The position numbers and the translations under genes were made by a program. The notes under the pieces are model-generated. The model was not told the origin of the DNA. It did no database searches and was given only the letters and a program-made list of their open reading frames with translations. Positions 4,334 to 39,332 of a stretch of 64,000 bases of DNA are shown in pieces. This stretch comes from Candidatus Latescibacterota bacterium (GTDB lineage: Bacteria > Latescibacterota > UBA2968 > UBA8231), in assembly GCA_965243025.1 (NCBI GenBank), contig CBDETY010000003.1:6016001-6080000 (forward strand). Reading direction: 5' to 3'. How positions within the stretch are numbered: position 1 is the stretch's first letter; every line of letters starts with the position of its first letter.

Positions 4334-7300
4334 CTACTTGAGCAGCAGCATCTTCTTGACGTCGGCGAACTCACCTCCAACCTGGACGCGGTAGAAGTAA
4401 ATCCCCGACGACATGCTCTGGCCGCGGTCGTTGGTGGCGTCCCACTGGACTGCGTAGCGGCCGGCAGTCTGGCGCTCGTTGACCAGAGTCCTGACTACCT
4501 GCCCCAGCATGTTGTAAACCTCCAGCTTCACGTCACCGGCTTCCGGCAAGTCGTACTTGAGGGTGGTCTCCGGGTTGAACGGGTTCGGGAAGTTGTTCCG
4601 AAGCGCGTACACCTCGGGACGGGTCTGAATCCGAACCGAAACCGGAGTGTCCAGACTGTTCAAGCCGTAATTGCCGTCTCTCAACTCGCCGCTGAGGATC
4701 TCGATGTAGCTGTCCTCGATCTCCCTGAGAGAGCGGAATACGAGGTTCAACCCGAGATCGCCCTCGGTGCCTACGTCTCCGTAAGCGACGAGCGACACGA
4801 GACCGTCCTTGTTGGCAACCACATGACCGTCCGCGAACTCGCCGGTACCGAGGATGCTGTTCTCCACCTCGGTGCCTACGTAGGTCAGGAGCTGCGGATC
4901 GTAGCTGACGCTCAACCCGTAACCCTTGAGCTCGGCGAAGTCCTGCAGGCTGACGGCGATGGCCATCTCTTCCCCGACCCTCGGCAACTCGAGGCCGGCG
5001 TCGAGGTAGAAGCGGGCGTCGCTGTTCAGACCGGCCATGAAGTTGGGCAAGCCCTTCCCAACACCCTCGATCTCCCTGCCGAAGAAATCGGCAAAGGTGA
5101 AGAAGTCGTTGAGGTCGATCTTGTTGTTCTGACTCAGGTCGAACGCGGGCTCGAAGGATTCGTCTTCAGCCGTGAGACCGAACTGGTCCGCGAGGATGAA
5201 GAAGTCATCGAAGCCCACCTGGTTGTCCGCCCCGAACAGACCGAAGACGGCCTTGCCGTTGGAGTCGAAGACACGGTTCCGGATCGCCATCGCGGTCTTC
5301 TCCATGATGGTTTCACCGAGGTTGTCCTGGTCGAAGGGGCGGACCTGGTAGGTGTAACGAATCCCGTTGAAGACCATCTGGTCCTCGAAGGAAGTCGAGC
5401 CACCCGGAGCCTCGCCTACGACTTCGTACGCCGCGTCTCCGATCCTGCGGAACACTTTGTATCCCTTAACACCGGCAGTCGTGTAGATCTGACCGCCGAC
5501 AGCCTGTCCGACCGAAGTGGTAACCATGTGGTCATCCGGAGACTTCGCCCAGGAGACCGTTATGCTGCCACCCGCGTCGCCCGGGGTATCCAGGACCCTC
5601 ATGTAAGGAATGGCTCCCGGAGGAATGTTGTCGATCGCCCGAACGGCTTCCGACCGCACTCTCTCGGACAGGTAAGCGTTGTCTACAGCCTTCATCAAGG
5701 GAGCGATCCCCTTGGTGGAGAAGGCAATGGCCTCCGGAGTCAAGGCGGCGAACAGCGGACCGTCCGAAACCTTCGGCTGGACGGCAGACTCTTTGCTCAT
5801 CGCCATCGTCTGAGCCATCACCTCGTAAGGATTGGAGAGGCTCATCCCAGGCATGAAAGCCTGCTTGCTCGCCGGGACCACATACTCGGCGGCAACCTCG
5901 AACGCCGTGGCATCCGAATCGAGAGTCGCTACCACGACCCGCATGAGACCCGGATCGGGAACGGCGTCGACGAACGCCCACGGAATGAAAGCCATGGCGT
6001 CCTCTTCCTGCACTATGCTGCCGTCTTCCCCGAGGACGTGGGTTACGGCGATCTCACGATAAATGCGGTACCCGTCGATGATGTCGTGGTTGTCCGACGG
6101 GTCGAAGGTCAGGAGGACGAAACCGCCCTGGTCGCCATTGCCGAGCGCACCTCTGAAGTCCTCGGCGATGAGGGTATCAGGAGCATCGATCTCCTCGACC
6201 GGCGGTCCGACCGGGGGCCGTCCAGGATCGACGGGGTCACCCTCGACATTGATCACACCGGAGACGCCGTGGATGAAAGTGTCACCCTGCTGCACGATGT
6301 CTCTGACAGTAACAACCATTGTCGCAAACGATGTAGAGAGACCGGAATTGGCGATGAAGCTGCCCGTTCCGTCCCGGATGGGCACATCACCGGCCGGGAC
6401 GATTGCGCCGATCTGGTTGGCCGTGACATTCACGAAACGGCTGTCCTTTTCGCGGACGTTCCCGAACGAGTCGGCGATGCTGACCTCGACAGTGAAGTCC
6501 TCACCCCTGGTAACGGGATCCGCCGGCCCTGCAACAATGAGCTTTGCATAGGCATCGTCCTGAACCAGGACCGTGTCGCGCAACTCAAATGCACCATCGA
6601 CACTTCCGCCCTGCAAGCTGAACACGAGCTTACCGTCGGAAACGGTGTCGCGAATGGCCACCGTCCGCTTTCCGTCGGAACCCCAGCCGTCGTCGTCCAG
6701 AGTGATGACGTTGCCTCCGCCGTCCGGCTGGGAAGCTCCGGGGCTGCTCTTCTCGACCAGATCAACGCCCTGACCGCCGATTACCGTCAAAGTGGCTTCC
6801 TCCCTGTAGAGGAAGGCCGTCTTGTCGTCCTCGGTCTGGGCCTGAAGGGTTACCAACACGACCTTGCCGGCATTGATCATCAGCATCTTGTCGTCGTCAA
6901 GGTCGTCCTTGTTGTCGTCCTTGAATCCCCTCAGCTTGAACTGGTCCGACTTATCCGACTGACCAGCAATCGTGACCTTGAAGTTTTCAGCAGGCACCAA
7001 CTCGTGGTCCTCGTCGAAGGTAAAGGTGTCAGGACCGGCCTGCGTCCAGTTTCCGGCGGCGTCCCTGGCGTCGATTCGGACATAGTACATCTTGCCGTCC
7101 TCGAGACCGGTCACGCTCAACTCGGTAAAGGTATCCTTCGCCAGGCCATCGCCTCCGATGGTCAGGGTGTCGTTCTTGGAGGCATCAGCAGACCCCGGAC
7201 CGAGGTGCTTGTAGATAACGGCCAGGGTGTCAGCGTCCTTGTTCAACTCCACGCTGACATTGGCGCTGGCGGCCCCCAAGGTCCTGAGGTCATCGTCCGA

Positions 7301-9469
7301 CCCGTCCATGATCGGGAACTTGTGGGTGAAGCCGATGTCCTTGAGATCGAGGGTAACGCCGCTTCGCGTCTCCTTCGGCCCTTCGTTTCCGGCAATGTCC
7401 ATGGCGACGAACTCGAAGACGTAGTCCGTCTTCCCGTCCGACAGGAGGGCGCCTTCAAAGCCGTCTTTCCTCGCAACCGTAAACGAACCTGCCGCGTCGA
7501 ACTGGCCGGCGTTGTCGCCGCCTTTGTCCTTCCAAATGTCCACGATATCATTGGCATCGATGTCACCGGCAGGGCCAGCGGCCATCATCTTGCTCAGATC
7601 GATCGCGATTCTGCTGTCGGTCTTCAGCCCTGCATAACTGAAATCCAGCACCTTGGCATCGTCGCTGCTGCCCTCGCTCTTGATTTCCACAACCACGTCC
7701 GGCCTATCCGCAAGCCTGCTCTTCAAGGTGAGCTTGAGCTGACCGAGCGTCTCATTCGGCACGTAGACCGGCGGATTCTCGTCGGCAGGCAGGTCGACAT
7801 CCCTGTTGGGTCCACCGCCGGAAACCCTGTCCCCGCCCAGGGGGGCGTGAACGAGGGTGTCACCACCGTCATCAACCGGCTTAATCCCGGCTATGATGGT
7901 AGCTCCACCGTTCTTGATTTCCGTGACCCCGGTCCCCGCTGCGCGGGAGGCCAGGGACGGCTTCACTCCGTCAACAAGAATAGCCGTGGTGACGGAGGCA
8001 GGATCTACCCCGTCGCCATCTATCGAGAAGCTTGCAGCCGTGTTTCCGGCGCCATCCTGGATATTGGCCGTCAATACCAGCGGCGCATCCGAAAGATCCG
8101 GGTACTCGTTCTCGGCGATAGCGTCCTTGTGCTGCAGGATGGTTTTTCGGGATCCATCGGATTTCTCAAAGTACCCCGAGGCGTCCGCAGTTGATACCTT
8201 GCCTCCTGCCTTTACGACAATTGACCAATCCCCTTGAAGGTTCGTCCGGATATTGCCGTACTCGTCATCGTTCAACTCGATATAGGCAATAAGCGTATCC
8301 TGGATTCCCAGGACGATTCGATCGGTCGGAAGCTTGCCCGCCCCTATCAAGGATACCGCGTCAGCCGAATTGCCATCGGCGTCTACCGTCAAACCTCCGA
8401 GGGCGGTAAACCCTGTTGCATATCGAAGATCAGCCCCTTTGAGCTCCTTGGCGTAACCGAGACCTGCAACATCCACCGCGTGGAAGTCGCCATCCGTTCG
8501 ACCCACAAGAGCCGAAATTCCGTCTCTATCGCCATCCGAACCATCCGTTGCTGAGGCATCTGGCTCGTCAGCATCCATCTTGAACCCAAAACCGTCCTCC
8601 TTAAACGGCCTCGAGAAATGCAGATAATTCCCCTGAACCGGACGGTCGCCGTCAATCTTCATCGAGTTGTCCGAAAGGACTATGGACGAATAGGCAGTTC
8701 CATCTCTAACGACAGCCGCCGCATAAACCTCGTCGTGCTCGCCCATGATTTCAGAGCCCGTCGAGTACCATCTGATCAGGTACCTCGTATCAACGGCTAT
8801 GTTCTTGTGCTTGCTCTCCGCGATCTTGGAATCGTCGATGCCTGTCCCGGTTATAAACAGCGAGTCGGCATCGCCTACCCATTTCCTGTCCGCCTCGGGA
8901 GTGGGAGTATCACCTTCTGCAGGAATATCGTTCCGGTCCGTTCCGCGGTCCGCTGTCCGAAAGGCAGCAAACGGGTTATCGGCACCGGGAGCATCCGCGT
9001 AAGAACTGCCTCTCACCGGGGCATCAATGGTGGCCCCTGTGGTGGTGGCTTCATTGATTATGGCCGGCGAGGCGCCAACAGTGAAAGGGGCTATACTGGA
9101 TGAGGTGCCAAATGCCCCATCGAGAAATGCCGCAGCAGTTCCGCCGCCGAAATTACTGGCGTGTTGAGCAAGCCTTTCTTTGCCCCGAACGTCGTTGTCC
9201 CAACCGCTTTCAACGATCAAGGTGTCGGTCACATTCCCGTCGTTGTCTTTCTCAAGCGCAACAAGAAAGACTGCAACCTCAAGCGCCGGGTCTTCGTCGA
9301 AGTCCTGCACCGTGACATCGACCTGGAAGACGCCGTCGATTCCGACCAGCCCCCCCTTCTTGATGGTCACGCCCTCGACCGTCTGCGCCAGAAGCTCACC
9401 GCTTCCTATCGGGCCCAGACCTACGAGACCCAGGAGCGTCAGGATAATCCACTGTCTGCTACGATGCAT
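4334..9469 (-). CDS. Large secreted acidic surface protein (~1711 aa) with C-terminal dockerin-like EF-hand pair, cohesin-like domain and FlgD-Ig/T9SS type A sorting domain
   Basis: RBS aaggagg before ATG 9469; signal peptide MHRSRQWIILTLLGLVGL..LLAQ; FGADNQVGFDDFFILADQFG..FDLSQNNKIDLNDFFTFADFFG; tail NFPNPFNPETT..SSGIYFYRV..KKMLLLK. Confidence 0.9.
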   Translation of the reverse strand: MHRSRQWIILTLLGLVGLGPIGSGELLAQTVEGVTIKKGGLVGIDGVFQVDVTVQDFDEDPALEVAVFLVALEKDNDGNVTDTLIVESGWDNDVRGKERLAQHASNFGGGTAAAFLDGAFGTSSSIAPFTVGASPAIINEATTTGATIDAPVRGSSYADAPGADNPFAAFRTADRGTDRNDIPAEGDTPTPEADRKWVGDADSLFITGTGIDDSKIAESKHKNIAVDTRYLIRWYSTGSEIMGEHDEVYAAAVVRDGTAYSSIVLSDNSMKIDGDRPVQGNYLHFSRPFKEDGFGFKMDADEPDASATDGSDGDRDGISALVGRTDGDFHAVDVAGLGYAKELKGADLRYATGFTALGGLTVDADGNSADAVSLIGAGKLPTDRIVLGIQDTLIAYIELNDDEYGNIRTNLQGDWSIVVKAGGKVSTADASGYFEKSDGSRKTILQHKDAIAENEYPDLSDAPLVLTANIQDGAGNTAASFSIDGDGVDPASVTTAILVDGVKPSLASRAAGTGVTEIKNGGATIIAGIKPVDDGGDTLVHAPLGGDRVSGGGPNRDVDLPADENPPVYVPNETLGQLKLTLKSRLADRPDVVVEIKSEGSSDDAKVLDFSYAGLKTDSRIAIDLSKMMAAGPAGDIDANDIVDIWKDKGGDNAGQFDAAGSFTVARKDGFEGALLSDGKTDYVFEFVAMDIAGNEGPKETRSGVTLDLKDIGFTHKFPIMDGSDDDLRTLGAASANVSVELNKDADTLAVIYKHLGPGSADASKNDTLTIGGDGLAKDTFTELSVTGLEDGKMYYVRIDARDAAGNWTQAGPDTFTFDEDHELVPAENFKVTIAGQSDKSDQFKLRGFKDDNKDDLDDDKMLMINAGKVVLVTLQAQTEDDKTAFLYREEATLTVIGGQGVDLVEKSSPGASQPDGGGNVITLDDDGWGSDGKRTVAIRDTVSDGKLVFSLQGGSVDGAFELRDTVLVQDDAYAKLIVAGPADPVTRGEDFTVEVSIADSFGNVREKDSRFVNVTANQIGAIVPAGDVPIRDGTGSFIANSGLSTSFATMVVTVRDIVQQGDTFIHGVSGVINVEGDPVDPGRPPVGPPVEEIDAPDTLIAEDFRGALGNGDQGGFVLLTFDPSDNHDIIDGYRIYREIAVTHVLGEDGSIVQEEDAMAFIPWAFVDAVPDPGLMRVVVATLDSDATAFEVAAEYVVPASKQAFMPGMSLSNPYEVMAQTMAMSKESAVQPKVSDGPLFAALTPEAIAFSTKGIAPLMKAVDNAYLSERVRSEAVRAIDNIPPGAIPYMRVLDTPGDAGGSITVSWAKSPDDHMVTTSVGQAVGGQIYTTAGVKGYKVFRRIGDAAYEVVGEAPGGSTSFEDQMVFNGIRYTYQVRPFDQDNLGETIMEKTAMAIRNRVFDSNGKAVFGLFGADNQVGFDDFFILADQFGLTAEDESFEPAFDLSQNNKIDLNDFFTFADFFGREIEGVGKGLPNFMAGLNSDARFYLDAGLELPRVGEEMAIAVSLQDFAELKGYGLSVSYDPQLLTYVGTEVENSILGTGEFADGHVVANKDGLVSLVAYGDVGTEGDLGLNLVFRSLREIEDSYIEILSGELRDGNYGLNSLDTPVSVRIQTRPEVYALRNNFPNPFNPETTLKYDLPEAGDVKLEVYNMLGQVVRTLVNERQTAGRYAVQWDATNDRGQSMSSGIYFYRVQVGGEFADVKKMLLLK

Positions 9470-9519
9470 CTTTTCCTCCTTATTCAGGAATGATTTCCCT
9501 CGACAGAATTCCACGGGCC

Positions 9520-9833
9520 ATCTCCCGATTCCAACCCGAACTCTGCGGTTTGAGGGGGGCGACGAGGTGCTGGCGGAGACGGTGGAGGGGATTCCACCTG
9601 TCTACGCCGACGATACCTTGTTCGACATGTTCTCCCCACAGATTGCCGAGCTTTTGCGAAAATAGGGCGTCACTCGTCTGTACCAGCATCAGGCGGACGC
9701 CGTATCGGAGGGGATGTCGGGCGCCAATGTGGTGTTGCAGGCGCCTACCGCCAGCGGCAAGACCTTCGCCTTTCAGATTCCCCTGATGGAGCGGTTGATG
9801 CGCGAGGGAGGTCATGCCTTGATGATCTACCCG
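9520..9833 (+). pseudogene. N-terminal fragment of a DEAD/DEAH helicase (YprA/MrfA-like)
   Basis: GVTRLYQHQADA..NVVLQAPTASGKT..ALMIYP (Q motif, Walker A, motif Ia); in-frame TAG at 9663; truncated by IS21 DNA. Confidence 0.75.
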
Positions 9834-10263
9834 AGAAGAACCGTCTGTCTGTCCTGCTCCAGACGCTGACCCGACCCGACCTGCTGGTCCTGGACGAGGT
9901 CGGCTACATGCCCCTGGAGCGCCAGGACGCCACCTTCCTCTTCGAAGTGGTCAGCAAGCGCTACGAGGCGCTCAAGTCCATCACCCTGACCAGCAACAAG
10001 AGCTATGGCACCTGGAACGAGATCCTTCCGATCCGGTGCTGGCCACCGCGCTCCTGGATCGCTTGTTACACCACTCCTCCACCATCAACATCCGGGGGGA
10101 CAGCTACCGGCTGCGGCATCCTCGCCAGGCCGGATTCACCACCGGGGAAACCCCTCGTCAACCGGAAGGAGAAAACATGCGCTGACAGAATCCAGCCGCG
10201 TGGGGTAGAAAAGTGTCCAATTTTAAACCGTTGGAACTGTCAACTTTGAAACCGTTCTTGACA
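9832..10263 (+). mobile_element. istB: IS21-family fragment (3' istB plus right IR)
   Basis: LLVLDEVGY..TSNKSYGTW..LLDRLLHH; ends ..ccgttcttgaca; near-identical to the inverted copy at 32675-33107; frameshifted. Confidence 0.9.
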
Positions 10264-11820: not shown

Positions 11821-11939
11821 CGTTACGCATCCGTTGCGGTTGTTACGTTGCCCGGTTTGTGACAGGCTGACGGCCTCGCGGACCATTGGGAAAGGGAAAC
11901 CCATCGTGGCAGCAAAGCCATACATGGCTCTTCCCGCCC

Positions 11940-14046: not shown

Positions 14047-14132
14047 CAGGACAGGCCGACACCCCAGTGCTCTCCTGTTCTCCACAAGCTCGCATTATGC
14101 AAATCCCCCTTTCCGGGAAAGGAAACCAGTCA

Positions 14133-14593: not shown

Positions 14594-15091
14594 TCAGCTC
14601 CGGGATGTCACCACGACCGCGTAAGCGCTTTGTATCTCCTGAAACTTTTCCTCCGCCAGCCGGATGATCCCAGCGGGAATCTCCTCGCCTGCCAGCCTGT
14701 CCGGGTGATATTCCCGAGACAATTCCCGGTATTTCCGTTCCAGTTCCTCGTCGGACATCTCCGGGGAGCATCCCAGCGTCTCGTAAGACGACGCCAGCAC
14801 CTGTTCCTCGAACTCCCTCCCCAACTCTTCGTCCGTCACCGCTTCGCCTCCGGCGCAGACGAACAGGTGCCGGTTGACCCCCCTGGTCAACTCGAACAGG
14901 GCCACCTGATCCTTGCCGCCGAGGATCCTTCTGAGAGGGTCGTCGGAATGGATCCTTCGCGGATTCCTCGCGTCCTGTAAGCCGTTCTCCCGGAGGTAGC
15001 CCCACAGTTTTTCGACGACCTGAGCCGGGGACATCGGCTCGTCGCCGACAACGGCAGCCAGTTCCTCAGACGGCTGCAGCCGCTTCAACAT
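14594..15091 (-). CDS. SWIB/MDM2-domain plus DnaJ (J-domain) fusion protein
   Basis: SWIB: LQPSEELAAVVG..QVVEKLWGYLRENGLQD..D.PLRRILGGKDQV.LFEL..VNRHL. J domain: YETLG..YRELSREYHPDRL..AEEKFQEIQSAY. Strong RBS. Confidence 0.85.
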   Translation of the reverse strand: MLKRLQPSEELAAVVGDEPMSPAQVVEKLWGYLRENGLQDARNPRRIHSDDPLRRILGGKDQVALFELTRGVNRHLFVCAGGEAVTDEELGREFEEQVLASSYETLGCSPEMSDEELERKYRELSREYHPDRLAGEEIPAGIIRLAEEKFQEIQSAYAVVVTSRS

Positions 15092-15849: not shown

Positions 15850-16287
15850 ATGAAACTCGAAGTCGTAGAACGCAAAGTGCGGCAAATCTGGCAGGACGTA
15901 TGCTCAGAGCCGCTGACCAGCCCCAACGAGGTGCTCGCCTACCTGGATTCCCTCGACATAACGTCCGCCGACCGGGAGGTATTCGTCGTCCTCCACCTCG
16001 ACACGCGCAATCGCGTAGTCGCCCATGAAACGACCTCCATCGGCAGCCAGAACGCGTCCCTCGTCCATCCGCGAGAGGTGTTCAAGGCAGCGATCCTGAA
16101 GGGAGCCACCAGCATCATTCTGGCGCACAACCACCCCTCCGGAGATCCGGCGCCCTCCAAGGAGGACATCGATCTCACGCACCGTCTTGTCGAGGCAGGT
16201 GGGCTAATGGGGATTCAGGTGCTCGACCATGTCGTCGTGGCTCCTCCTGGCGAGAGCGTGTCCATGAAGGAACTCGGGATTGTCTGA
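15850..16287 (+). CDS. radC: RadC-like JAB-domain protein
   Basis: REVFVVLHLD..VHPREVFKAAI..AHNHPSGDPAPSKEDI..GIQVLDHVVV. Confidence 0.93.
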   Translation: MKLEVVERKVRQIWQDVCSEPLTSPNEVLAYLDSLDITSADREVFVVLHLDTRNRVVAHETTSIGSQNASLVHPREVFKAAILKGATSIILAHNHPSGDPAPSKEDIDLTHRLVEAGGLMGIQVLDHVVVAPPGESVSMKELGIV

Positions 16288-16761: not shown

Positions 16762-16837
16762 CTCGAAGCCCATGTACGACTCGAGGCCCATGTACGAGGG
16801 CCTTTATACATGTACGAGGGCCCCTATAATTGTATAG
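16762..16837 (+). repeat. Tandem 18-20-bp repeats (CATGTACGA x3) ending at a TATAAT box
   Basis: ctcgaagcccatgtacga / ctcgaggcccatgtacga / gggcctttatacatgtacga / gggcccctataattgtatag. Confidence 0.75.
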
Positions 16838-16949
16838 GGAGCGGGACACCCGTTGCAGCCCCGTTTTCAACCTGCCAGGGCACCGAACGGCTCGCGGGGG
16901 GTCGGTCCCGACCACCCGCTCCCCCCCATTCTCACCAGAAAGGAAACCC

Positions 16950-19352: not shown

Positions 19353-19379
19353 CTATTGGCATGTCCCTATTGGCATGTC
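19353..19379 (+). promoter_or_regulatory. 13-bp direct repeat CTATTGGCATGTC x2, putative operator
   Basis: Exact copies at 19353 and 19367 in an AT-rich region upstream of the FN3 gene. Confidence 0.5.
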
Positions 19380-19623
19380 AACGATCCTAAGTAAGGGGCA
19401 TTCTGTCATGGTGTCAAGCCATTTTTCGGTAAGGAAGAGAGTCCCCCCAGAAATTAAGGCGCCGGGGCCGAGCCAAACCCTTTCGAGGCCTCAGACTGCG
19501 CCTGAAAACCTCCATGAAGCCCTCGAGAAGCCCTCGAATGGTTTGATAACCCATCATATGGAAATCTACCCTCGTCCGAACCGTGTGAAGATGCGGTTTT
19601 CTCAAAGGAGAAGGACTGTTCTG

Positions 19624-28600: not shown

Positions 28601-28863
28601 GGTTCAACTACCCGAACCCCTTCAATCCGGAAACCACGATCAAGTACGCGCTGCCACAGGCGTCTGACGTGAAGCTGGTGGTATACAACTCGATTGGACA
28701 GGTGGTCCGAACCCTCGTGAACGAGCGCCAGAGCATCGGCCGCTACGCCTTCACGTGGGACGCGACCAACGACCGCGGCCAGGCGGTGTCTTCGGGAATC
28801 TACCTGTACCGCCTGCAGGCAGGAGAGTTCGCCCAAGTCAGAAAGATGCTGTTGCTCAAGTAG
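19624..28863 (+). CDS. Giant secreted fibronectin type III repeat protein (~3080 aa) with dockerin-like, cohesin-like and FlgD-Ig/T9SS-A C-terminal cassette
   Basis: Signal peptide MKWLRGGMLVLLAISFLPRGLQA; 21 repeats of L.V.W..V.GA..Y.VQW..YTV.V.A; P/T linker; tail NYPNPFNPETT..SSGIYLYRL..RKMLLLK. Start at 19624 or 19648. Confidence 0.93.
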   Translation: MKNSHQVSMKWLRGGMLVLLAISFLPRGLQAQFAPPTVTVKSGPEQLTVEWNEVEGATGYKVQWRNSSTEADAENTDWDASRQAMEPGTSRSSLIEDLDPAITYEVRAFAKDMYGDYSNPSNDPDGDGTPISPLTTGTPAPGQVTGVTVTVPAAAGQLTVTWDGLDVATNYKVQWRDPDEVDSWEDFEPDDDGTDPDNEESVAASTSDPLPTTYSHTITATTGGLSAENTYIVRVIATNGVDTEASNGGDGTPSDDATGRPRPGQVNGPGDATDDPLTVEPGEGKLTVKWEGVEGADEYKVQWKSGTQDWDPSNRQGMEDQDATSHEITGLTAGTEYTVRVFATNGDDTDASDGGDGTPSVEATGTPQPGQVTGVTVTSDAAAELTVSWTAVSGTGIEYKVQWRDATSVTSWDDFTPTDGTNQATATATSYTISPSTPLTVGTEYTVRVIATHDAAAAAVEDVFLADGTPSEDATGTPRPGQVQNLAQNPAPASALPGEVTVTWDRLIGADSYTVQWKLATEVNYDGTRLATIDQTPTGENPSHRITGLGSAAHTVQVYATNNDEQDGAQDGAPLELSVTPGTPGNNQVTGVTVTPGSQQLTVEWVAVTGATEYKVQWWKGDDATFDAADDDEKGDVTGIRGTRYTIRSLDEDTEYMVQVINGEDDGTASPVTDQWTKPGQVTGVTAEATSGQTGQLTVGWTVATTVGTRTDGGYKVQWRTGSENWDPDSRQVDVTGASATGTTIGDETPASDMPLGGTLYRVRVIAYNDGGDGDPSGEARATPLAAQVATPTVTPGPEELKVVWVKANGAYRYKVQWTTESGFTGFTATEGTNQKTVTDDNPEFTPEFTIEGLTGGTPYQVRVIAENESGTAAEGTVNATSGTPAPGMVGTLTVTAGSEQLTVEWDAVTGATSYKVQWRVPDENASWGADDFTAAENDNQATVTGSPLPTSYTISPTSTPAATSALSADTEYTVRVVPVVGTVDGTPSADATGRPAPGQIEDDTGTSDVDEGVTVTPLEGALKVSWGEVSGATGYTVQWKSGSDPYSRNNQADLSETEREITPLTAGVQYTVRVFAYNGDASDASDGGVGPSSDEATGTPQPGQVTGVTVTSDAAAELTVSWTAVSGTGIEYKVQWRDATSVTSWDDFTPTDGTNQATATATSYTISPSTPLTVGTEYTVRVIATHDAAAAAVEDVFLADGTPSDDETGIPRPGPVQTLAVATSPANGWAATVTWDRLTGADNGYIVQWKLATEVNYDRTRQATEPQTEETQTTVTHRITGLTAGTAYTVQVYATNDGGHGPATSPAANHPFTPVASTGNQVVGVMVTAGSEELTVTWDRVPGATGYKVQWNSDGTYDDLTVDTDDPDDRTADASGTSYTITGLTGGTTYNVQVIAVVGGENQSPSATGSTGIPKPGKVTIKAVRLGEGTLNVSWDEVTGVTGYTVQWREDSQQYSSRSRMKQPTPATATQIELDMDDLRGPGQLMPSGQKYWVQVYATNASGDGPTSDEVAGTPLPGKVDDTDENRGPVTVTRGPQQLEVGWDAVPGATGYTVQWKSGSQDFDNLLDSDDAADTRTARLGVVSSYTIENLIAGTQYTVQVFASNAGGLGAASDLQRGTPAPGTVTGVTVTAGSGALTVSWTAVPGAAGYKIQWKSGSEEYDPATREGRRTGLSYTIESLSADTEYTVQVIATLDLSNSNTPETDDSAPSDEATGTPLPGKVASVNVVAGAEKLLLSWDEVTGADGYTVQWRSGQQTFADAATDNREATDITGTRYTIEGLTADPATQYTVQVIAYNASGNGDPSDEATGTPVPVAEGQVANVMVDPGPERLAVSWSMVPGATGYKVQWKSGSETFANAATDDREEEVTGLSYTIPDLEPDTEYTVRVIAVLSTGDGPDSDEAFGTPTDRLGQVANVMVTPGPYHLSVAWDEVTGATGYKVQWKSGDEDYDETNRQALIEVGDDPGFSHTSIGLGGRTAGIEYTIQVIATIIETGDADDGPASAPATGTPQPGQVTNVRAAGVEALTVSWKAVPDATMYRVYWKSGTQDFDASRLAEVTSGTRHVIPNLTVGTQYTVFVVAGVASVYGQPSDEVTGTPTRRRPSTPSTPSTPTPQPPTTPPAQPTTPPVTSAPKDPKPGKVVLSSVKAGAEGGQLAVKWRVMAKASGYKVQWKSGDQDFSSSRQARVSGMLAVNHVIGDLDYTIEHMVRVIAYNQHGDGPPSDSREATPKRGVPKNNLAIEDPDEARTVGQAISLTVSVAEEGAHVLEVTGGRGVTLSGDGVTDQGGGSAQLDADSWSEGQRTVVLNDTVGPDVLSIVLRNTDGDSLAGLSGIMYNPGEASQLVVTGLPDTLAVGRAYRGQVSATDSYGNVRTEDREVTISTDARNVSSSSPVELEEGTGGFWVRSDEVPATALVLTFEDSEDSDLSSSVSVTVRPLDAPDRVVAADNPGDEGGFVLLTWDLSDDHSILDTYRIFRGEGSAREWGSVAAAPGATEGRAVVATLDTMSSVWGVLGQIGGSSMMDDMACMADIVVTGSDVDGLEVLVWRTGSGNRVSSPRSSNILWKGTTDATGQVSLSVNNSGRTSSYAATARRDGELVASWRGIQLTPSDCPSLELAIGGEATVGGATDQRPSVVLMSSITQSGSARALDNTPPAAAGSFRAVDVPDDDGGQIQLSWTESASDVSITRSVEGAVGPVTSDMSRGVVGYRIYREEAEGFALLGTVGPGVTGFVDTTAITGIRFTYVVSAFDQDNETVSEEEEAMSIRNREEDVNGKLIQGLFGADKTVGFDDYFHFADHYGSSVEDTEWEPAFDLAAKQAVDIDGYNVFAENFGRQTASAAKVIPLEPGRNEQTRLDFFGGVPLPRVGEEFVLTLHLSDFGLLKGYGFQVEFDGEELEVVRAVAADNGLGEGILANPQVLAVAEGKQAIVAYGDEVSEGTVAVELVFRALREFEDGWIRITEGQVRDGAFAVNPLVLPAPVQMETLPEVYALGFNYPNPFNPETTIKYALPQASDVKLVVYNSIGQVVRTLVNERQSIGRYAFTWDATNDRGQAVSSGIYLYRLQAGEFAQVRKMLLLK
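20710..21032 (+). repeat. ~323-bp intragenic repeat, copy 1 (FN3 unit 4)
   Basis: No mismatch seen versus 22912-23234. Confidence 0.9.
22912..23234 (+). repeat. ~323-bp intragenic repeat, copy 2 (FN3 unit 11)
   Basis: Offset 2202 bp (734 codons) from copy 1. Confidence 0.9.
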
Positions 28864-31567: not shown

Positions 31568-32458
31568 ATGACAGCAGAACAACGCCAGTTTTCTGGAATA
31601 TCCCGGATTTTCAACGGCCTGTTAATCCTGGCAGCAGCCGTACCCGGCTGGTCGGCCCCGGCTCCACCGGATTGGGTCCTGATCGACCCCAGCGACGAGC
31701 CCGGGTTCTGGGTGGTGACTTGGCCTTCGGTTGCCGACGCCGACGGTTACCAGATTTACCTGCAGATCGGGGCCGCTGACGTTGAGGGGGACCAGGCCCC
31801 CGAGCCGGTCTTGGCCCGGTGGGGCTACGTCGAACAACAGGACGGGGTGATCAGGGTCAAGATCGCCGGCCTGTCTCAGGAGACGTTCTCCTTCGGGGTA
31901 GCCACCGTAAAGGACGGGGTCGAATCCGAAATCACCTGGCCGGCACAGCCTTCACAGCCTTCTGTAGCACCCACGCCACCGGATTCGGTTTGGGTCGAGG
32001 AATACGGAGAAGGTATGGTAGTTCTTGCCTGGACTGTCGTTCCGGGAGCCGATGGGTACAGGATTTACGGAGAGGTCCTCGTGACCGTTGCATTGAATTC
32101 TCAAGGGGAAATCGTAATCCTTGAAAGCCCAGAGGTAGTTTGGGTGTCGTGGGGCTATGTGGACCAGCAGGATTCGGAAATAATCCGGGCTACCATTCCG
32201 ATCCTGGATGAGGGGCCGCCCGCCCTTGCCGTGGCCGCAGAAAAGGACGGGGTGAAATCAGAAATCGCCTGGCCGCCGGCACATCCGGACTTCAACCGGG
32301 ATGGCCAAGTGAACCTCCTCGACTTCTTCCTGCTCGCCGACGCCTTCGGGAGCACCCTTCGGGGATTCGACCTCGACCGGGACGGCCGGGTCGACCTGAA
32401 CGACTATTTCCTGTTCGCCAATGCCTTTCAGACCGGCCAATGGCAACCGGGGAACTGA
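31568..32458 (+). CDS. Secreted protein: two FN3-like beta repeats plus C-terminal dockerin-like EF-hand pair
   Basis: Signal-like N-terminus; repeats ADGY.IY..WGYV.QQD..KDGV.SEI.WP; DFNRDGQVNLLDFFLLADAFG..FDLDRDGRVDLNDYFLFANAF. Confidence 0.85.
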   Translation: MTAEQRQFSGISRIFNGLLILAAAVPGWSAPAPPDWVLIDPSDEPGFWVVTWPSVADADGYQIYLQIGAADVEGDQAPEPVLARWGYVEQQDGVIRVKIAGLSQETFSFGVATVKDGVESEITWPAQPSQPSVAPTPPDSVWVEEYGEGMVVLAWTVVPGADGYRIYGEVLVTVALNSQGEIVILESPEVVWVSWGYVDQQDSEIIRATIPILDEGPPALAVAAEKDGVKSEIAWPPAHPDFNRDGQVNLLDFFLLADAFGSTLRGFDLDRDGRVDLNDYFLFANAFQTGQWQPGN

Positions 32459-32749
32459 ACTCCCCGGAGGGGCACCTTTCCTGGCCGGTTGGGGAAACTG
32501 CTTCGGTAATTGATCGGACAACCATGAGAACTGCGAAAGCAGCCACGAGGGCGTGCAGGGGATCTTTCTCCGCGATTTGGGTCGAAGCTCTTGCCGTCGT
32601 GGAATAGGTCACTCCCAGAGAGTTATCGCTCAGTGCTACCTCGCCGCAGCCGTTCCTGAATCTCCCCAGGCAAATGTCAAGAACGGTTTAAAAGTTGACA
32701 GTTCCAACGGTTTAAAAGTGGACACTTTTCTACTCCACGCGGCTGGATT

Positions 32750-33553
32750 CTGTCCGCGCATGTGTTCTCCTTCCGGTTGACGAGGGGTATCTCCGGTGGT
32801 GAGTCCGGACTGGCGACGATGCCGCAGGCGGTAGCTGTCCCCCCGGATGTTGATGGTGGAGGAGTGGTGTAACAAGCGGTCCAGGAGCGCGGTGGCCAGC
32901 ACCGGATCGGGAAAGATCTCGTTCCAGGTGCCATAGCTCTTGTTGCTGGTCAGGATGATGGACTTGAGCGCTTCGTAGCGCTTGCTGACCACTTCGAAGA
33001 GGAAGGTGGCGTCCTGGCGCTCGGGGCATGTAGCCGACCTCGTCCAGGACCAGCAGGTCGGGTCGGGTCAGCGTCTGGAGCAGGACGGACAGACGGTTCT
33101 TCTCGCGAGCGCTGCGGGAGCGGGTGACCAGATCGTGCAGGGTCAGGAAATAGACGCGGTGGCCGCGCTCGATGGCCTTGAGGGCCAGGCCGAGAGCCAG
33201 GTGCGATTTGCCGACCCCGGGCGGTCCGAGGAACAGGACGTTGGTCCCCTGGTGCAGGAAGCGCAGCGTGGCGAGCTCGTCGATGGTCTGTTTGGGCACC
33301 TGGGCCTGGGCGTGGAAATCGAAGCTTTCCAGGGTCCTGGTCGCGGCCATGCCCGACAGTCTCAGGTTGGTGGCCACCCGGCGCTCGAAGCGGTCGGCGC
33401 GCTCGCGGTTGAGGAGCTCATCGATCACTTCCACCGGCAGCTGCTGCTTTTTCTGGCCCTCTTCCAGGACCGTATCCAGCCGTGCGGGCGGCGTTCAGGC
33501 CGAGTATTTCCAGGTGTTCCTGCACGCCGCTCGTAACTGACGGTCGCGCTCAT
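32750..33553 (-). pseudogene. istB: IstB ATPase, frameshifted
   Basis: GPPGVGKSHLA, LLVLDEVGY, LLDRLLHH; frameshifts near the 5' end and ~33025. Confidence 0.9.
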
Positions 33554-34879
33554 GCGAGCACCTCCTGCGACGTTTCGGCGAGCAGGTCCTCATACACCTC
33601 CAGCGACCGGACCTGGACCTCGAGATCCGGATCGGCCGCCCTCGGCGGCGGTGCCGTGAGCGCCCGGGCCGGCTCGGGCGGCCTCTGCTCGAAGCGGGGG
33701 CGCCGTCCTTTCCGTCGGCTGTGCTGCCGGGCCGCTGCTCGCGTGAGCCGGCGGAGGGCGGCGGCGTGCTCGGGCAGGGTGACGGCGGCATGCCCCTGGA
33801 CTCGCGCTGATGACGAGCCACCGGGACGTCGCCCAGATACACCCAAAACAGTTCGCCGACCTCCTCGCCGTCGGGTCGCACTCTCACCGTGCGCCCCACC
33901 GCTTGCGGATCGACGCTGTAGCGGGTGCCCCCGTAACTGATATGACCGTCGGAGGGCACCTGTCGGAATTCGATCGGACGCAGGTCGTAGACCGGCACCG
34001 CGGCCGGCGGCCGCAGGTGGGCGCGCTCCTCGGCGTGACGATCCACCGGTCGGGCCCGGGTGGTGCCGTGCACCCGCACGTTGGCCACCGTGTCGAGCCA
34101 GATCTCGAGCTGGCGATTGAGATCGGCCAGGTCGACGAAAGCGCGGCCTTCGAGGAAGGATGTTTTCACATACCCTACCCCGCGTTCGACCTTTCCTTTG
34201 ACCCGCGGCCAGTACGGAGGCGACGCTACCGGCACAAACCCGTAGTGATGGGCGAACGCCAGGAACGACGGGTTCCAGTGCACGGTGCCGGTGCAGACCT
34301 CGTGCTGATCGACGGCCTGCTTCATGTTGTCGACCAGAAGCTCCGCCGGGATGCCCAGCCGCCCGAACGCCGCACTCAGACAGGCCAGCAGCACCGGCCG
34401 TCTCGAGGAGGTCGTGAAGCGGGCGTACATCATGCGGCTGTAGCCGAGCACGACGACGAACACGTAGAGCTTTCTGCGCGCTCCGGCCACTTCGAGGGTG
34501 CCGCACTCGCCCCAATCCATCTGCGCCTGCTGGCCGGGCAGGGTTTCGAAGGCTCGCTGAGACGCCGGACGAACTCCTGCTTGAGGGGCCGTACGTAGGC
34601 GCGCAGGATGCTCAGCCCGCCCCGATACCCCCGCGCCGCCAATTCCCTGAACAGCACCGTGGCGGGCAGGTCGAAACGTTCCAGACGCGCGCCGATGTAG
34701 TCCTTGTGCGCATCGAGCTTGGAGGCCTTCCGCCGCCGCTTCCCGGCGAAGGGGGTGGCGCGCTGCAGGTGGTTGTACACGGTCTGGCGGCTGACGCCCA
34801 CCTGCCGGGCGATCGCTGCCTTCTTCATGCCCTGACGGGCCAGATAGTTGATCTGCATGGCCTTCTCCCAAACGATCAT
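33550..34879 (-). pseudogene. istA: IstA transposase, frameshifted
   Basis: HTH GVSRQTVYNHL; FETLPGQQAQMDWG; VDNMK; KGKVERGVGYVK; frameshifts ~34560 and ~33800. Confidence 0.9.
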
Positions 34880-35393
34880 CGATTCGAAGCCTTCCCTGTG
34901 TTTGTCGGGGATGTTTTTCAACGGACCATCCCAAAGTACAAGGCACAGCGGAGGCTTCATCAGGGTGGACACGACCGGACCTGAAGGCCCGGCTTCGAAT
35001 CGGCGCGGAAACCGGGCGGAGAGGGGCTGAGAATCACAGTGTGGATAACTTGCTGGAAGACGCTCACACCGGGTTATCCACATCTGAGTCCGGTACCTCC
35101 GAGAGGACGAGCGATTATCTCAGGAGATACGCACCCCGAAGTGTCCAACTTTATATCCGTGATTTTGTCAAAGAAAAAACCGGCGGTGACAGATTGACCA
35201 CGACCCATCCCGGTAGGGGTTCGCGGCTGTGGCTGCTACGGGGCTTCCACTGACAGCATACGGGGCATCGATTCGAACAACGGTGCAACCTGACATGCTT
35301 CCCTGATCCAGAGGAACCCAGCGTAGGCTCGAGCGTCCATGTCGGGATACACGAACCGGTAAACTCTCTCCAGACCTTGAAGTTCCCACGCAA

Positions 35394-38300
35394 GTGATCT
35401 TCAACCGTGCTCCGCGGGACGGGATTGTGTTCGTCCTCTCGCTCGCGGCCCTGACCGCGGCCGCCGAAGCGCAGCCCCCCTGGCCGGCAATGGACTCACC
35501 CCCGCCCCGCGGGCCTGAAACCCCCGCCGGACTCGCCGGGCAGCTTTCCCATGCCCGAGCCGTCCTGGCCAGTTCCTGGACGGCGACCGCGGAAATGACC
35601 GGGAAGACTTCCGGCAGCGTGCGCCTTCTCTACGAGGCCGGGCCCGCGACTCCATCCGGTCCCGCTTCGGTCGAGCCGGTCGCCTTCGATCACCTCCGCG
35701 ACCTCCACCGCAGCTGCACCGTCGGCATTCCCCCGGACAGCGAAGTCGAGATGGAGGTCATCGAAGCCCGCGTCGCGGCTCGAGTCCACGCCCCCGGGGC
35801 GGTTGAGCACTTCGCGGGTCTGGTCCAGGGCCCGGTCGCGCTCGGGGAACGCGGCCTTCTGCGAAGTCAGGAAGTAGTTGCGGTCGGGTTCGGACCCCGG
35901 CTCGACGGCGAGGAACTCACCGTTTTCGACCGCATTGAGGTCGAGCTGCGTTTTTCCACCTCCCGGGGAGCGAAACGGCCTTCCTGGCCCGACAAGTGGG
36001 GGGAACTGCTGTACCGCAACACCCTCGTCAACTACGAGCAGGCGAGGTCCTGGCGTCTCCCGGCGGGTGGCCTCGGGGCCGGCAAGGCAGCCGACGAGCA
36101 GGTGCTGAGCGGCGAGGTGCTCAGGCTTACGGTCCGCAGCAACGGCATGTACAAAGTTACCGGGGCCGACCTTGCAGAAGCGGGCATCGACCTGGAGACG
36201 GTTGTCCCGGAACGCCTGCGCATGCTGTACGGAGGGGGCCGGGTTCTGGGTCTCCAGCGCGCCGTAATTCCAGGTATCATCCGCCGCGAAATCCCGGTTC
36301 TGGTCGAGGACGGCGGCGACGGCCGCTTCGACGCGGGCGACTTCCTGCTGTTCTACGGCGAGGCGACCCAACGCTGGGAGTACGGGCGCGACGCGAAGCA
36401 GTATTTCTGGCGGCAGAATCCCTTCACCGAGGAGAACGTCTACTTCCTCGATACCCGAGCCGAGGTGGAGGGTCTCAGGATGAGTCAGATCAGCGGAGCT
36501 CCGGACAACGGTTCGGCGCGCCGGATCGACAGCTACCGCGAGCGGATCCATCTCGAGGACGACCGCATGATTCGGTTGCTGTGGTGGAGCATAAAGACGG
36601 GTTACGACTGGTACTGGGAGGACTTCGGGGGGAACGCCCGCAACTTTTCCGTGATCGTGCGCGAAGCGGTTCCGGGAACTCCCGTCGACATCCGGATCCG
36701 TTTCTGGGGATCGAGGAAAGCCGTCCACAGGTTCGATCTGTACTGGAACGACGAGCTGGCAGGACAGGTCAGGATGGACAGCATGTTCGTGGCCACCCTC
36801 CGGGCGCAGGCCCCGCAGGGCCCGAAGGAGGGCCTCAATCAGCTGGGAATCTTCCAGCGCGACAACAAGGGGACGCGCCTGGACTGGATCGAGGTCGAAT
36901 TCGACCGCCGGCTGTCGGCAGAGGGGGGCGAGCTGACCTTCGCCTGGCCGCCGTCGGCGGTGCTTGAGAATGAGGGCGCGGTAACGGCGGAGTTTGTTCT
37001 GTCGGGGTTCGCCGAAGAGGGCAAACCCCGGATCTTCGAGATCTCCGCGCAGGGGTGGCCGGGGGAAATCGTCGGTTTCGACTGGGACGGGACCACGGGA
37101 ACCGCGGTCTTCCAGGACCGGTTCGGCGGGGAGGGAGTTCCGCCGCGCTACATCGCCATCGTGCCCTCGCGGTGGAAGCGGCCGGCGGCAATTGAGCGCG
37201 ATGCTCCGAGCAGGTTGCGCACCCGGGACAATGGGGCGGACTACATCGTTCTCACCCATGCCGATTTCCGCGCCGCTGCCGACCGCCTGGCCGAGTGGCG
37301 GGCGGCGGACGACCGCTTCGGACGTATGCGGACGCTCACTGTCGACGTCCAGGACGTCTACGACGAGTTCTCCGGGGGACTGCTCGACCCGATGGCGATC
37401 CGGTCGTTCGTCAACTACGCGGTCGACAACTGGGATCCCGCTCCCTGGTTCATCTGCCTGATGGGTGACGGTACTCACGATTACAAGAACAGCACGGGCA
37501 CCAGCCACCCGAACTGGATGCCGGCGTACCAGGAAGGCATAAGCATGTTCGACGAATGGTACGTGCGCGTGGAAGGAGAGGACCGGATTCCCGACCTGGC
37601 CATCGGCAGATTGCCGGTGCAGTCGGCAACAGAGGCGGAGGGGGTGGTCGACAAGCTGATCTCCTACGACTCGGACCCGGAGGTCGGTCCATGGCAGAGC
37701 CGGGTGCTGCTGGTGGCGGACGACCTGCGCAATCCGTCGAAACTGGACTTCGTGGAATCCTTTTTCATTCGCGACGCCGAGTCGCTGGCGAAGCGCGTCT
37801 TCCCTGCCGACCTCGATCTCGTCAAGCTCTACATCGCCCAGTTTCCGCTCGAGGGGAGCACCAAGCCGCAGGCAAGGGATGCCTTCGTGCGCCGCTTCAA
37901 CGAGGGAGCGCTGATCGTCACCTACCTCGGACACGGGAGCCTCGATGTGCTCGCCCACGAGAAGATGTTCCTGCTTTCAAGAGACGCCGACCGAATCGAC
38001 AACGGCAGGCGGCTGCCGTTCATGTACACCGCCGCCAGCCAGGTCGGGGTGTTCGACGATCCGGACCAGCAGTCGATCCCGGAAGTTCTGATGAACCGCG
38101 CCGACGGCGGGGTGATCGGGTTCATATCGGCCGCCCGGGTAGGCTTCCATACCAGCAACATGTACCTCGCCTGGGAGTTTCACCGACTGATGTTCAGGTC
38201 GGAGGAGAGTAACCTTCCTCTGGGACTGGCGCTGACCATCGCCAAGCAGAACGTCACCGGCAACCAGGACGACCGCACCAACATGCAGCGCTACTGCCTG

Positions 38301-39332
38301 ATCGGCGACCCGGCGTTGCGCCTCGCCAGACCCCGGTACGTCGTCGCCCTCGCGGTGCCGGATTCGGTCCGGGCGCTCGAGGAGGTCCGCGTCGCCGGCC
38401 GGATTCTCGACTCCGACGGACGGCTGGCGGAAGACTTCGCCGGAACCGCCCTCGTGCAGGCGTTCGACTCCACTACGAGGAGCAAGCTGGACGACATCCC
38501 CTACGACCGCGTCGGGAACCCGATTTTCCGCGGCCTGGTGCCGGTTGCAGGGGGCCGTTTCGAGACCGCCTTCCGCGTGCCCAAGGACATCAGCTACAAG
38601 GAGGACAACGGCCGGGTCAGTGCCTATGCCTGGAGTGACCATGCTCCGGCCGCTTTCGGGTCGGTCGACGGCCTGGTTCTCGCCGGCACGGCGACCGGCG
38701 TTTCCGCCGACGAGACCGGACCCGGGATTGCGATTGGATTCAAGGGGAAGGATGGTTTCAAAAGCGGGGACACCATCCCCGGCGAAGCGGTCCTCGAAGC
38801 TGTGATCAGCGATCCGAACGGCATCAACATAACCGGGGAAACCGGGCACGAAATGGAGCTCCGGGTGGACGGTGCGCGCTTCATCGTCACCGAGCACTTC
38901 CACAATACCGGGGACTACCGCAGCGGCCTCCTCGAGTTCCCGCTGCCCGCCATGGAACCCGGTACCCATACCTTGCGTCTCAAGGCCTGGGACACGTTCA
39001 ACAACTCGTCCCAGGTCGAGGCGGAAGTGCGTGTCTCGGAGGCGGAGGACGGGGTGCTTTCCCGGCTGCTGTTCCACCCGAACCCGATGCGGGACAGGGG
39101 CGACTTCACGTACACTCTCGAAGATGCGGCGGAGTCTGTCCGCATCAGGGTGTTCTCGCTCGCCGGAACGCTCGTCGACGAGCTTTCCGGCACGGGGCAC
39201 GCCGACTTCAACCAGGTGGCCTGGACTCCTCCCGGGGAGCTCGCCAACGGCACCTACCTGTACCAGGTAGAGGTCGAGCTCGCCGATGGCTGGCGCATCG
39301 AGAGGAAGGCCGCCATCCAGGTGATGAAGTGA
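35394..39332 (+). CDS. porU: PorU-like peptidase C25 (T9SS sortase family) protein
   Basis: Signal peptide; DYIVLTH..VDVQDVYDEFSGG..DP.AIR.F..GDG..DYKN..IGRLPV..YLGHG..LIGDPA; PorU-type C-terminus (DPNGINITG..GH, HTLRLKAWDTFNNSS, PNPM, LANGTYLY). Ser at the expected catalytic Cys. Confidence 0.85.
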   Translation: MIFNRAPRDGIVFVLSLAALTAAAEAQPPWPAMDSPPPRGPETPAGLAGQLSHARAVLASSWTATAEMTGKTSGSVRLLYEAGPATPSGPASVEPVAFDHLRDLHRSCTVGIPPDSEVEMEVIEARVAARVHAPGAVEHFAGLVQGPVALGERGLLRSQEVVAVGFGPRLDGEELTVFDRIEVELRFSTSRGAKRPSWPDKWGELLYRNTLVNYEQARSWRLPAGGLGAGKAADEQVLSGEVLRLTVRSNGMYKVTGADLAEAGIDLETVVPERLRMLYGGGRVLGLQRAVIPGIIRREIPVLVEDGGDGRFDAGDFLLFYGEATQRWEYGRDAKQYFWRQNPFTEENVYFLDTRAEVEGLRMSQISGAPDNGSARRIDSYRERIHLEDDRMIRLLWWSIKTGYDWYWEDFGGNARNFSVIVREAVPGTPVDIRIRFWGSRKAVHRFDLYWNDELAGQVRMDSMFVATLRAQAPQGPKEGLNQLGIFQRDNKGTRLDWIEVEFDRRLSAEGGELTFAWPPSAVLENEGAVTAEFVLSGFAEEGKPRIFEISAQGWPGEIVGFDWDGTTGTAVFQDRFGGEGVPPRYIAIVPSRWKRPAAIERDAPSRLRTRDNGADYIVLTHADFRAAADRLAEWRAADDRFGRMRTLTVDVQDVYDEFSGGLLDPMAIRSFVNYAVDNWDPAPWFICLMGDGTHDYKNSTGTSHPNWMPAYQEGISMFDEWYVRVEGEDRIPDLAIGRLPVQSATEAEGVVDKLISYDSDPEVGPWQSRVLLVADDLRNPSKLDFVESFFIRDAESLAKRVFPADLDLVKLYIAQFPLEGSTKPQARDAFVRRFNEGALIVTYLGHGSLDVLAHEKMFLLSRDADRIDNGRRLPFMYTAASQVGVFDDPDQQSIPEVLMNRADGGVIGFISAARVGFHTSNMYLAWEFHRLMFRSEESNLPLGLALTIAKQNVTGNQDDRTNMQRYCLIGDPALRLARPRYVVALAVPDSVRALEEVRVAGRILDSDGRLAEDFAGTALVQAFDSTTRSKLDDIPYDRVGNPIFRGLVPVAGGRFETAFRVPKDISYKEDNGRVSAYAWSDHAPAAFGSVDGLVLAGTATGVSADETGPGIAIGFKGKDGFKSGDTIPGEAVLEAVISDPNGINITGETGHEMELRVDGARFIVTEHFHNTGDYRSGLLEFPLPAMEPGTHTLRLKAWDTFNNSSQVEAEVRVSEAEDGVLSRLLFHPNPMRDRGDFTYTLEDAAESVRIRVFSLAGTLVDELSGTGHADFNQVAWTPPGELANGTYLYQVEVELADGWRIERKAAIQVMK

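Follow-up and report, generated by a model that had tools for sequence, protein, structure and literature searches.

Gene content of the window

The 64,000-nucleotide stretch of Candidatus Latescibacterota DNA analysed here (the window) contains a 40,424-bp transposon of the IS1595 family of insertion sequences (ISs), located at window 1644-42067. Between its two inverted arms lie two giant genes (giant 1 and giant 2) whose products end in type IX secretion system (T9SS) C-terminal domains (CTDs), a small dockerin gene, and a copy of porU (Table 1). It is likely that this transposon moved as a unit with copied cargo, and that porU was joined to the other genes by accident and not as part of a conserved, co-adapted module. 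The window lies within a 6.78-Mb contig of a three-contig genome assembly (completeness 96%, contamination 6%), and its G+C content is 56-69%. Coordinates written as C3:x-y refer to contig C3 of the same genome.

A preliminary description of the locus, focused on window 4334-39332, had assigned secreted products to the three largest cargo genes and one smaller gene. This inventory agrees in sizes and coordinates with the open reading frame (ORF) list, in which the three largest ORFs of that region encode 3162, 1726, and 1312 amino acids. All four proteins have hydrophobic N-terminal leaders with Ala-X-Ala-like ends when read by eye, and the leader of giant 2 probably starts from an internal methionine. 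Their secretion is predicted from these leaders and from the CTDs. Several other parts of the preliminary description are borne out by the results given below: a common dockerin-, cohesin-, and FlgD/T9SS-A-like tail on both giants, a dockerin-only protein, a PorU-like gene, carriage on a transposon, and a non-cellulosomal character.

Giant 2 contains 19 fn3 stretches (450.5 bits in Pfam), while a model of the N-terminal 841 residues of giant 1 has low confidence (predicted local distance difference test score, pLDDT, of 62) and matches Ig/FN3 ectodomains and giant adhesins with TM values of 0.1-0.39. These values are enough only to describe the giant 1 N-terminus as a β-sandwich string, in which no enzyme was detected. 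Pfam scans of the cargo proteins found no glycoside hydrolase or carbohydrate-binding module (CBM), making the cargo non-cellulosomal.

A transposon inserted into a DUF6785 gene

The transposon is flanked by an 8-bp target-site duplication, ACCAGAAC, and separates two halves of a DUF6785 gene. Pfam matches to the split gene cover profile positions 149-498 at 173-1660 and 1-153 at 42051-42707, with the halves collinear on the minus strand, and the 8-mer ACCAGAAC, or else ACCACAAC, is present once in each of two intact paralogues of the gene. The element termini read GGGAATTAT and GGGATATAT, and the terminal 26-mers are inverted with 25 of 26 positions matching. A DDE_Tnp_IS1595 transposase, terminal inverted repeats, and an 8-bp target duplication all place the element in the IS1595 family; ISNwi1-type IS1595 elements (ISfinder) have ends reading ggnnatTAT and 8-bp duplications.

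The two arms, each ~2.1 kb long, are 85.9% identical overall; the inner extent of the left arm was set by matches to other copies in the genome. No inverted copy of the outer 30 nucleotides (allowing up to 11 mismatches) was found within 4.5 kb in any of the eight arms of this element and its three siblings, and only outer termini were found genome-wide. Because no arm has a copy of the terminus at its inner end, the mobile unit is the whole 40,424 bp. Composite transposons of the Tn5/Tn10 type have inverted IS copies at both ends and large cargo. The present element does not consist of two complete IS copies around a cargo, as each flanking arm is without its own pair of terminal repeats. It also differs from IS1595 elements with passenger genes, since the elements described here span 34-49 kb and end in two inverted 2.1-kb arms that each hold a transposase copy.

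Sequencing runs provide further views of the block. The right junction is spanned in one run alone, X3, which may be the source sample, by a 7,365-nt contig without differences; runs X5, X6, and X10, from three further studies, contain parts of the block at 97-100% identity on short contigs. One contig from run X10 follows the arm as far as position 42067, beyond which its sequence is unrelated; in that sample, this terminus apparently lies at another site.

Table 1. Features of the window and locations of the sibling elements
Feature	Position	Strand	Remarks
DUF6785 gene, 3' part (target)	170..1643	-	DUF6785 positions 149-498 plus DUF6784; Pfam 272 and 103 bits
Left 8-bp target-site duplication	1636..1643	.	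ACCAGAAC
Left arm	1644..3767	-	IS1595-family terminus GGGATATATG; transposase gene 2449-3453(-), NF033547 138 bits
Giant 1	4334..9514	-	1726 aa; leader, Ig/FN3-like β-sandwich string, two FN3-like modules, dockerin-like, cohesin-like, T9SS CTD
IS21 istB fragment	9554..10263	+	Two frames; IstB_IS21 59.7 and 42.2 bits; 95-99% inverted repeat of 32675-33105
SWIB-DnaJ protein (backbone)	14594..15091	-	Also in E2 and E3
RadC-like JAB protein (backbone)	15850..16287	+	Pfam RadC 142.9 bits; copies in E1, E2, and E3
Inner, more distant IS1595-family transposase (backbone)	16830..17933	+	NF033547 172.8 bits; 81-84% DNA copies in siblings
Giant 2	19375..28863	+	3162 aa; leader, ~19+ FN3 domains, Pro/Thr linker, C-terminal region common with giant 1
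Small dockerin protein	31568..32458	+	296 aa; leader, two FN3-like modules, canonical dockerin, no CTD
IS21 element	32639..35119	-	istB over two frames 32639-33494, istA 33498-35033 (Pfam); 97.6% DNA copy in E3
porU copy	35394..39332	+	1312 aa; His847, Ser882; no porV after it
Right arm, inverted relative to left	39957..42067	+	Transposase 40269-41279(+), NF033547 140 bits; terminus 42042-42067
Right 8-bp target-site duplication	42068..42075	.	ACCAGAAC
DUF6785 gene, 5' part (target)	42068..42707	-	Profile positions 1-153; Pfam 107.5 bits
Sibling element E1	C3:1304677-1339122		
Sibling element E2	C3:1941107-1986021		
Sibling element E3	C3:4234635-4283179		

Sibling elements in the genome and its relatives

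Three more pairs of termini in the genome delimit elements of 34,446, 44,915, and 48,545 bp (E1, E2, and E3) with perfect 8-bp duplications, so that the duplication is present in all four elements. The insertion sites of E1 and E3 lie within genes, for GH42 and AcrB, respectively. Common to the four are RadC, the inner IS1595 transposase, and an inverted, transposase-bearing arm of ~2.1 kb at each end; the SWIB-DnaJ gene occurs in three (E2, E3, and the window element). The remaining cargo comprises a type I restriction system and three WD40-CTD proteins in E1, NYN, ankyrin, and GmrSD-like proteins in E2, and a giant-2 paralogue, a Cas3-like helicase, and CARDB-dockerin, LRR-CTD, and WD40-Big_1-CTD proteins in E3.

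Of the 21 genomes searched, the window's genome included, three contain arm DNA, all of them of the same genus. Another genome of the genus, G001, has a 4.6-kb form (G001:C11:1961238-1965811) that has a single transposase, terminal repeats of 86 nt, and a target-site duplication, along with a 25.9-kb form that also has a duplication (G001:C11:1182940-1208810). This suggests that the large elements grew from a small form such as the 4.6-kb one. Separately, a 222-kb region of the window's own genome (C3:818000-1040000) contains many fragments of transposon arms together with 28 of the 96 CTD matches that exceed the cut-off.

Cargo copied from the same genome

Much of the cargo has close copies elsewhere on the chromosome. 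Giant 1 is 96.2% identical in DNA over 5,278 bp to a paralogue at C3:4598832-4604100; the two proteins agree at 1653 of 1727 aligned positions, with patchy divergence and a ratio of nonsynonymous to synonymous substitution rates (dN/dS) of 0.27. Of the two giant-2 paralogues, the one within E3 (C3:4250272-4240163) shows 89% DNA identity over 10.3 kb and the other (C3:5943503-5947669) 90%, and window 11268-30848 is syntenic with E3. The window porU aligns over 4,011 bp with a native locus at C3:3585438-3589444 (gene 3585441-3589379) at 94.8% identity; the two genes differ at roughly 200 nucleotides, and the proteins are 93.3% identical. The similarity to the native locus ends at 39335, 3 nt past the stop codon, and the matches of both giant 1 and porU end within tens of bases of the gene ends.

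In the two other genomes of the genus, each of which carries one PorU, the protein is 82% identical to that of the window, which is thus closer to the native copy. Thirteen of the 18 family members sampled have a single relative of giant 1 each. Just 3' of giant 2, at window 29088-29823, a unit of roughly 100-250 nt is present four times in tandem, with 75-95% similarity between the copies. The unit encodes a ribbon-helix-helix-like peptide with weak Pfam matches only, and the same array lies 3' of the giant-2 paralogue in E3.

A common tail with dockerin-like and cohesin-like modules

The T9SS type-A CTD model TIGR04183 matches giant 1 with 36.7 bits and giant 2 with 32.7 bits (cut-off 23), and FlgD_ig matches them with 45.5 and 43.2 bits, respectively. 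PF18962 reaches 28.4 bits in giant 1 against a cut-off of 27; in giant 2, it scores 24.6 bits when the entire protein is scanned and 28.2 for the tail by itself. The tail DNA of the giants is 71% identical. Their C-termini share 37% protein identity across 911 aligned columns, and the common region of ~870 residues thus exceeds the tail alone.

The two modules that precede the CTD are more divergent. In Pfam, Cohesin scores 17.7 bits in giant 1, below its cut-off of 24.1, and has no match in giant 2, while Dockerin_1 matches neither giant. As Pfam names neither module in the giants, the 220 residues preceding the CTD were searched against 1.84 billion cluster representatives. The search returned 720 clusters at E<=1e-3, of which 41 reach E<=1e-30, and the match mostly lies ~90 residues from a C-terminus; judged by sequence similarity, the dockerin-cohesin-CTD tail is widespread. 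Among the 32 homologues scanned with Pfam, 19 pass Cohesin and three pass Dockerin_1. Some have exactly the order dockerin, cohesin, CTD, and one, which has 10 cohesins and a CBM3, is a classical scaffoldin.

Profile and structural comparisons point in the same direction. A profile built from 32 tail homologues matches dockerins of solved structure (2y3n_B, E 8e-12) as well as cohesins (2o4e_A, E 3e-9). The 310-residue tail was modelled by AlphaFold2 with a pLDDT of 93.3 and a predicted TM score (pTM) of 0.86, both dockerin helices being present in the model. The model matches cohesin modules at TMt 0.6-0.78; for its middle domain, Foldseek alignments with 2vo8, 2jh2, 1g1k, 5nrk, and 6kgc give TMt 0.67-0.78 (root-mean-square deviation 2.5-3.6, ~140 columns). 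The calcium loops of the giants read GADNQ/GADKT and DLSQNNK/DLAAKQA, with a 6-residue insert, and are degenerate, most so in giant 2. By profile and modelled fold, the tail modules belong to the cohesin family and, for the dockerin-like part, probably to the dockerin family, as the preliminary description had named them; Pfam is below cut-off or silent for both in the giants.

In the small protein, Dockerin_1 passes narrowly (23.8 bits against 22.9), and the calcium loops (D-x-N/D-x-D-G) are canonical, as they are in 16 paralogues in the genome. A model of the giant-1 cohesin-like domain in complex with the small protein's dockerin and two calcium ions scored 0.29 against a mark of 0.32, which is evidence in neither direction. 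The full tail is found in six genes of the genome, and dockerins like that of the small protein are scattered over ~30 places, usually directly before a CTD.

No CTD remnant was found 3' of the small protein gene. The idea that it is a dockerin-CTD gene cut by IS21 was dropped, as the in-frame text past the stop codon is only faintly linker-like, and a shorter paralogue at C3:3003645-3004260 also ends right after its dockerin with no CTD. These two proteins consist of a leader, FN3-like module(s), and a dockerin, with neither CTD nor lipobox. Six long ORFs (C3:4622663-4623319, 3268308-3268946, 825623-826255, 2405396-2406028, 909340-909972, and 895386-896024) reverse the usual order, with a non-terminal Por_Secre_tail/FlgD_ig-type domain followed ~230 nt further on by a Pfam dockerin.

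PorU and its serine-for-cysteine site

The window PorU matches NF033707 with 620.9 bits (cut-off 420) over model positions 4-1079 of 1095, Peptidase_C25 end to end with 257.7 bits, and the Porphyromonas gingivalis PorU structure 6za2 at E 5e-64. The preliminary description had proposed a check for a second porU and other T9SS genes in the host, and both are present. The genome encodes two PorU proteins plus a longer PorU-related one, an SprA (598 bits), and a PorV-like protein (95.6+49.4 bits, below the 250 cut-off), and 96 of 99 CTD matches lie over the cut-off. The native porU is located among genes with high G+C at third codon positions and is followed by the PorV-like gene. The neighbours of the window copy are IS21 and the right arm, and no PorV match was found after it or anywhere else in the window.

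P. gingivalis PorU uses a Cys-His catalytic pair with Cys690, according to PMC5121618. Ser882 of the window PorU (codon 38037-38039) aligns with the Cys of the TATCDF motif in 6za2, while His847 is kept. Under an assumed offset of 2 between chain and protein numbering, the aligned Cys is the catalytic Cys690. The serine is not a peculiarity of the transposon copy: it occupies this position in 14 of 14 full-length PorU proteins of the family (the two copies in the window's genome and 12 from relatives) and in all 120 homologues listed, of which the named ones come from Latescibacterota or Gemmatimonadota metagenome-assembled genomes. The 35 alignable metagenome PorU loci divide by distance, with Ser in the 20 close and Cys in the 15 distant loci, and the three PorU2-like proteins examined keep Cys.

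These alignments suggest that the "processing factor" PorU may work differently in this lineage. The Cys is essential in the sole PorU studied, and with Ser across a whole clade, either the serine can fill the sortase role or another protein fills it in these phyla, for which the Cys-bearing PorU2-like protein (C3:5086330-5091141) is a candidate. No description of a Ser-variant PorU was found in searches of open-access text, and the Ser-type PorU is a point that deserves a specialist's look.

Linkage of porU to tail-bearing genes

PorU is present in one of the four elements and in none of the three siblings. Across 79 genome loci around tail or CTD matches, eight of them with the full tail, there is one weak C25-like match and no IS1595 or IS21 transposase, and no PorU lies within 10 kb of the tail at any of the eight full-tail loci (CTD-only matches disregarded). 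In 50 metagenome PorU loci, neither the tail nor an IS1595 transposase nor istA was found (0/50); a PorV-like neighbour is present in 30 of them. Five of 30 relatives have PorU and a tail gene on one contig, with the nearest pair at least 0.7 Mb apart, and in eight others they are on separate contigs. On these comparisons of gene neighbourhoods, a conserved linkage of porU with tail-bearing genes is not supported.

Origin of the block

The likely history of the locus can be outlined as follows. The 40.4-kb element, one of four siblings of 34-49 kb, would have moved as one unit into the DUF6785 gene, and IS21 insertions and segments copied from elsewhere in its own chromosome would have filled the space between its arms. 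The copied segments would here include the two giant T9SS cargo genes, the small dockerin gene, and a housekeeping porU that came without its porV partner. The giants would be exported by Sec, cross the outer membrane through the T9SS by means of the CTD, and be fixed on the surface by PorU/PorV, where the dockerin-like and cohesin-like modules, placed right before the CTD, would probably link surface proteins near the membrane. The presence of porU would be a duplication accident in a very plastic genome and would provide at most a second dose of PorU.

Several observations sit uneasily with this outline. The copies of porU have a dN/dS of 0.30 with no gaps or stops, so both look selected and the transposon copy is not junk; PorU proteins over the cut-off also occur in two or more copies in seven of 19 family genomes. 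Of the 96 CTD matches that exceed the cut-off, nine fall within the four elements, against an expected ~2.4 for their 2.5% of the genome. CTD cargo is thus not random at the level of the element family, and selection on it is possible. As to the surface function, binding between the modules is putative, and the chemistry of PorU may differ here, a Ser taking the place of the nucleophilic Cys. The host T9SS is likewise not fully accounted for, as motor genes of the GldK/GldM type were not found: with the Bacteroidota models TIGR03525, TIGR03517, and PF12081, GldM has no match and the best GldK score is 70.6 bits against 350. At a genome completeness of 96%, this does not establish their absence, and the motor may be either very divergent or missing from this T9SS.

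The boldest alternative, which we regard as unlikely, takes the four elements as an undescribed class of giant IS1595-type transposons whose growing cargo bay, between the two transposase-bearing arms, shuttles defence genes and host-facing surface genes, the latter coding for T9SS adhesins and for WD40, LRR, ankyrin, and FN3 proteins. The bay in the window would then have captured a Ser-type PorU, and transfer would deliver the dockerin-cohesin-CTD giants along with the only sortase variant that can anchor them.

The preliminary description favoured a mobile surface-display kit, in which a scaffold travels with a processing factor. On this reading, PorU would be dedicated to processing the scaffold's tails, and a recipient would gain the whole function at once. 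The four named genes are indeed all T9SS-related and lie within one mobile unit, and the selection on both porU copies, the CTD enrichment in the sibling elements, and the multi-copy PorU of other family genomes would all fit. A co-adapted kit is nevertheless improbable. The description itself had counted a lack of co-occurrence in related elements against its proposal, and the three siblings are without PorU; nor does linkage appear in relatives or in the 8 + 50 related loci. The porU itself duplicates the housekeeping gene and has no accompanying porV, and its product has diverged from the native protein by 6.7% with no region standing out as re-specialised. The tail, in six genes, and dockerins, at ~30 further places, are dispersed across the genome.

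It is very improbable that the block is instead an island built in place, with two IS copies and later insertions around an intervening 38 kb that never moved as a unit. Arms that are just 85.9% identical, a mosaic interior with IS21 and a third IS1595 transposase, and inner arm ends without a terminal repeat are what such a history could leave behind. Separate IS insertions, however, would each bring their own duplication, whereas the same 8-mer stands beside the outermost termini and is single in the intact paralogues. The halves of the target gene are collinear, and the pattern recurs in three more elements, two of them within other genes.

Hardly credible is an assembly artefact, in which the "paralogues" at 89-96% identity are alleles of a co-assembled strain stitched into one contig: although contamination is 6% at a completeness of 96%, such repeats are hard to assemble, and the short-read contigs of other runs break throughout the block, the window lies inside one of only three contigs, the junctions are clean and have the target-site duplication, the X3 contig from what may be the source sample bridges the right junction without differences, and patchy divergence with a dN/dS of ~0.3 is as expected for paralogues with gene conversion.

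If the transposon simply picked up copied cargo, the window offers a clean, well-bounded case of an IS-rich genome multiplying and reshuffling its surface-protein genes, which is useful for annotation but unsurprising. A 34-49-kb transposon family rich in T9SS cargo and in eukaryote-like repeat proteins would be a concrete vehicle for spreading such genes. This element family and the Ser-type PorU merit the most further attention.

Relation to known systems

The preliminary description knew of no account of the arrangement, which stands in part. No account of porU on a transposon was found in searches of open-access text, but a surface scaffold of this general kind has already been proposed: PMC8542988 infers a CTD-anchored cohesin scaffoldin with dockerin-bearing enzymes for Ca. 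Stygibacter (Cloacimonadota), and also refers to a review on cohesins and dockerins outside cellulosomes. As described there, that system also belongs to the FCB group, places cohesins and dockerins on secreted proteins, and uses a T9SS C-terminal domain as surface anchor; its scaffoldin has tandem cohesins and CBMs, and its dockerins are found on hydrolases and peptidases. By contrast, the window giants have one dockerin-like and one cohesin-like module per tail, no enzyme or CBM was found in them, and their genes are on a transposon.

The best structural and profile matches to the cohesin-like domain come from the NagJ cohesin of Clostridium perfringens (2o4e, 2jh2, 2w1n), which is unrelated to cellulose degradation. 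That system differs in forming toxin/glycosidase complexes in a Gram-positive bacterium with no T9SS, and the dockerin-like calcium loops of the window giants are degenerate.

For PorU, the reference is the PorU-PorV attachment complex of P. gingivalis (PDB 6za2; PMC5121618 and PMC7323717). The likeness extends to a full-length PorU match and, at the native locus, a PorV-like gene that follows. The differences are the replacement of the catalytic Cys690 by Ser with the His kept, the window copy without porV, and motor genes that go undetected with Bacteroidota models.

A putative 47-70-kb composite element flanked by IS5 has been proposed around porR in P. gingivalis (PMC7323717). Like the window element, it is described there with inverted IS ends, large cargo, and a T9SS-related gene inside. 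The window element differs in belonging to the IS1595 family, in having only the outer terminus, in carrying porU and not porR, and in a target-site duplication and split gene that show insertion as a unit.

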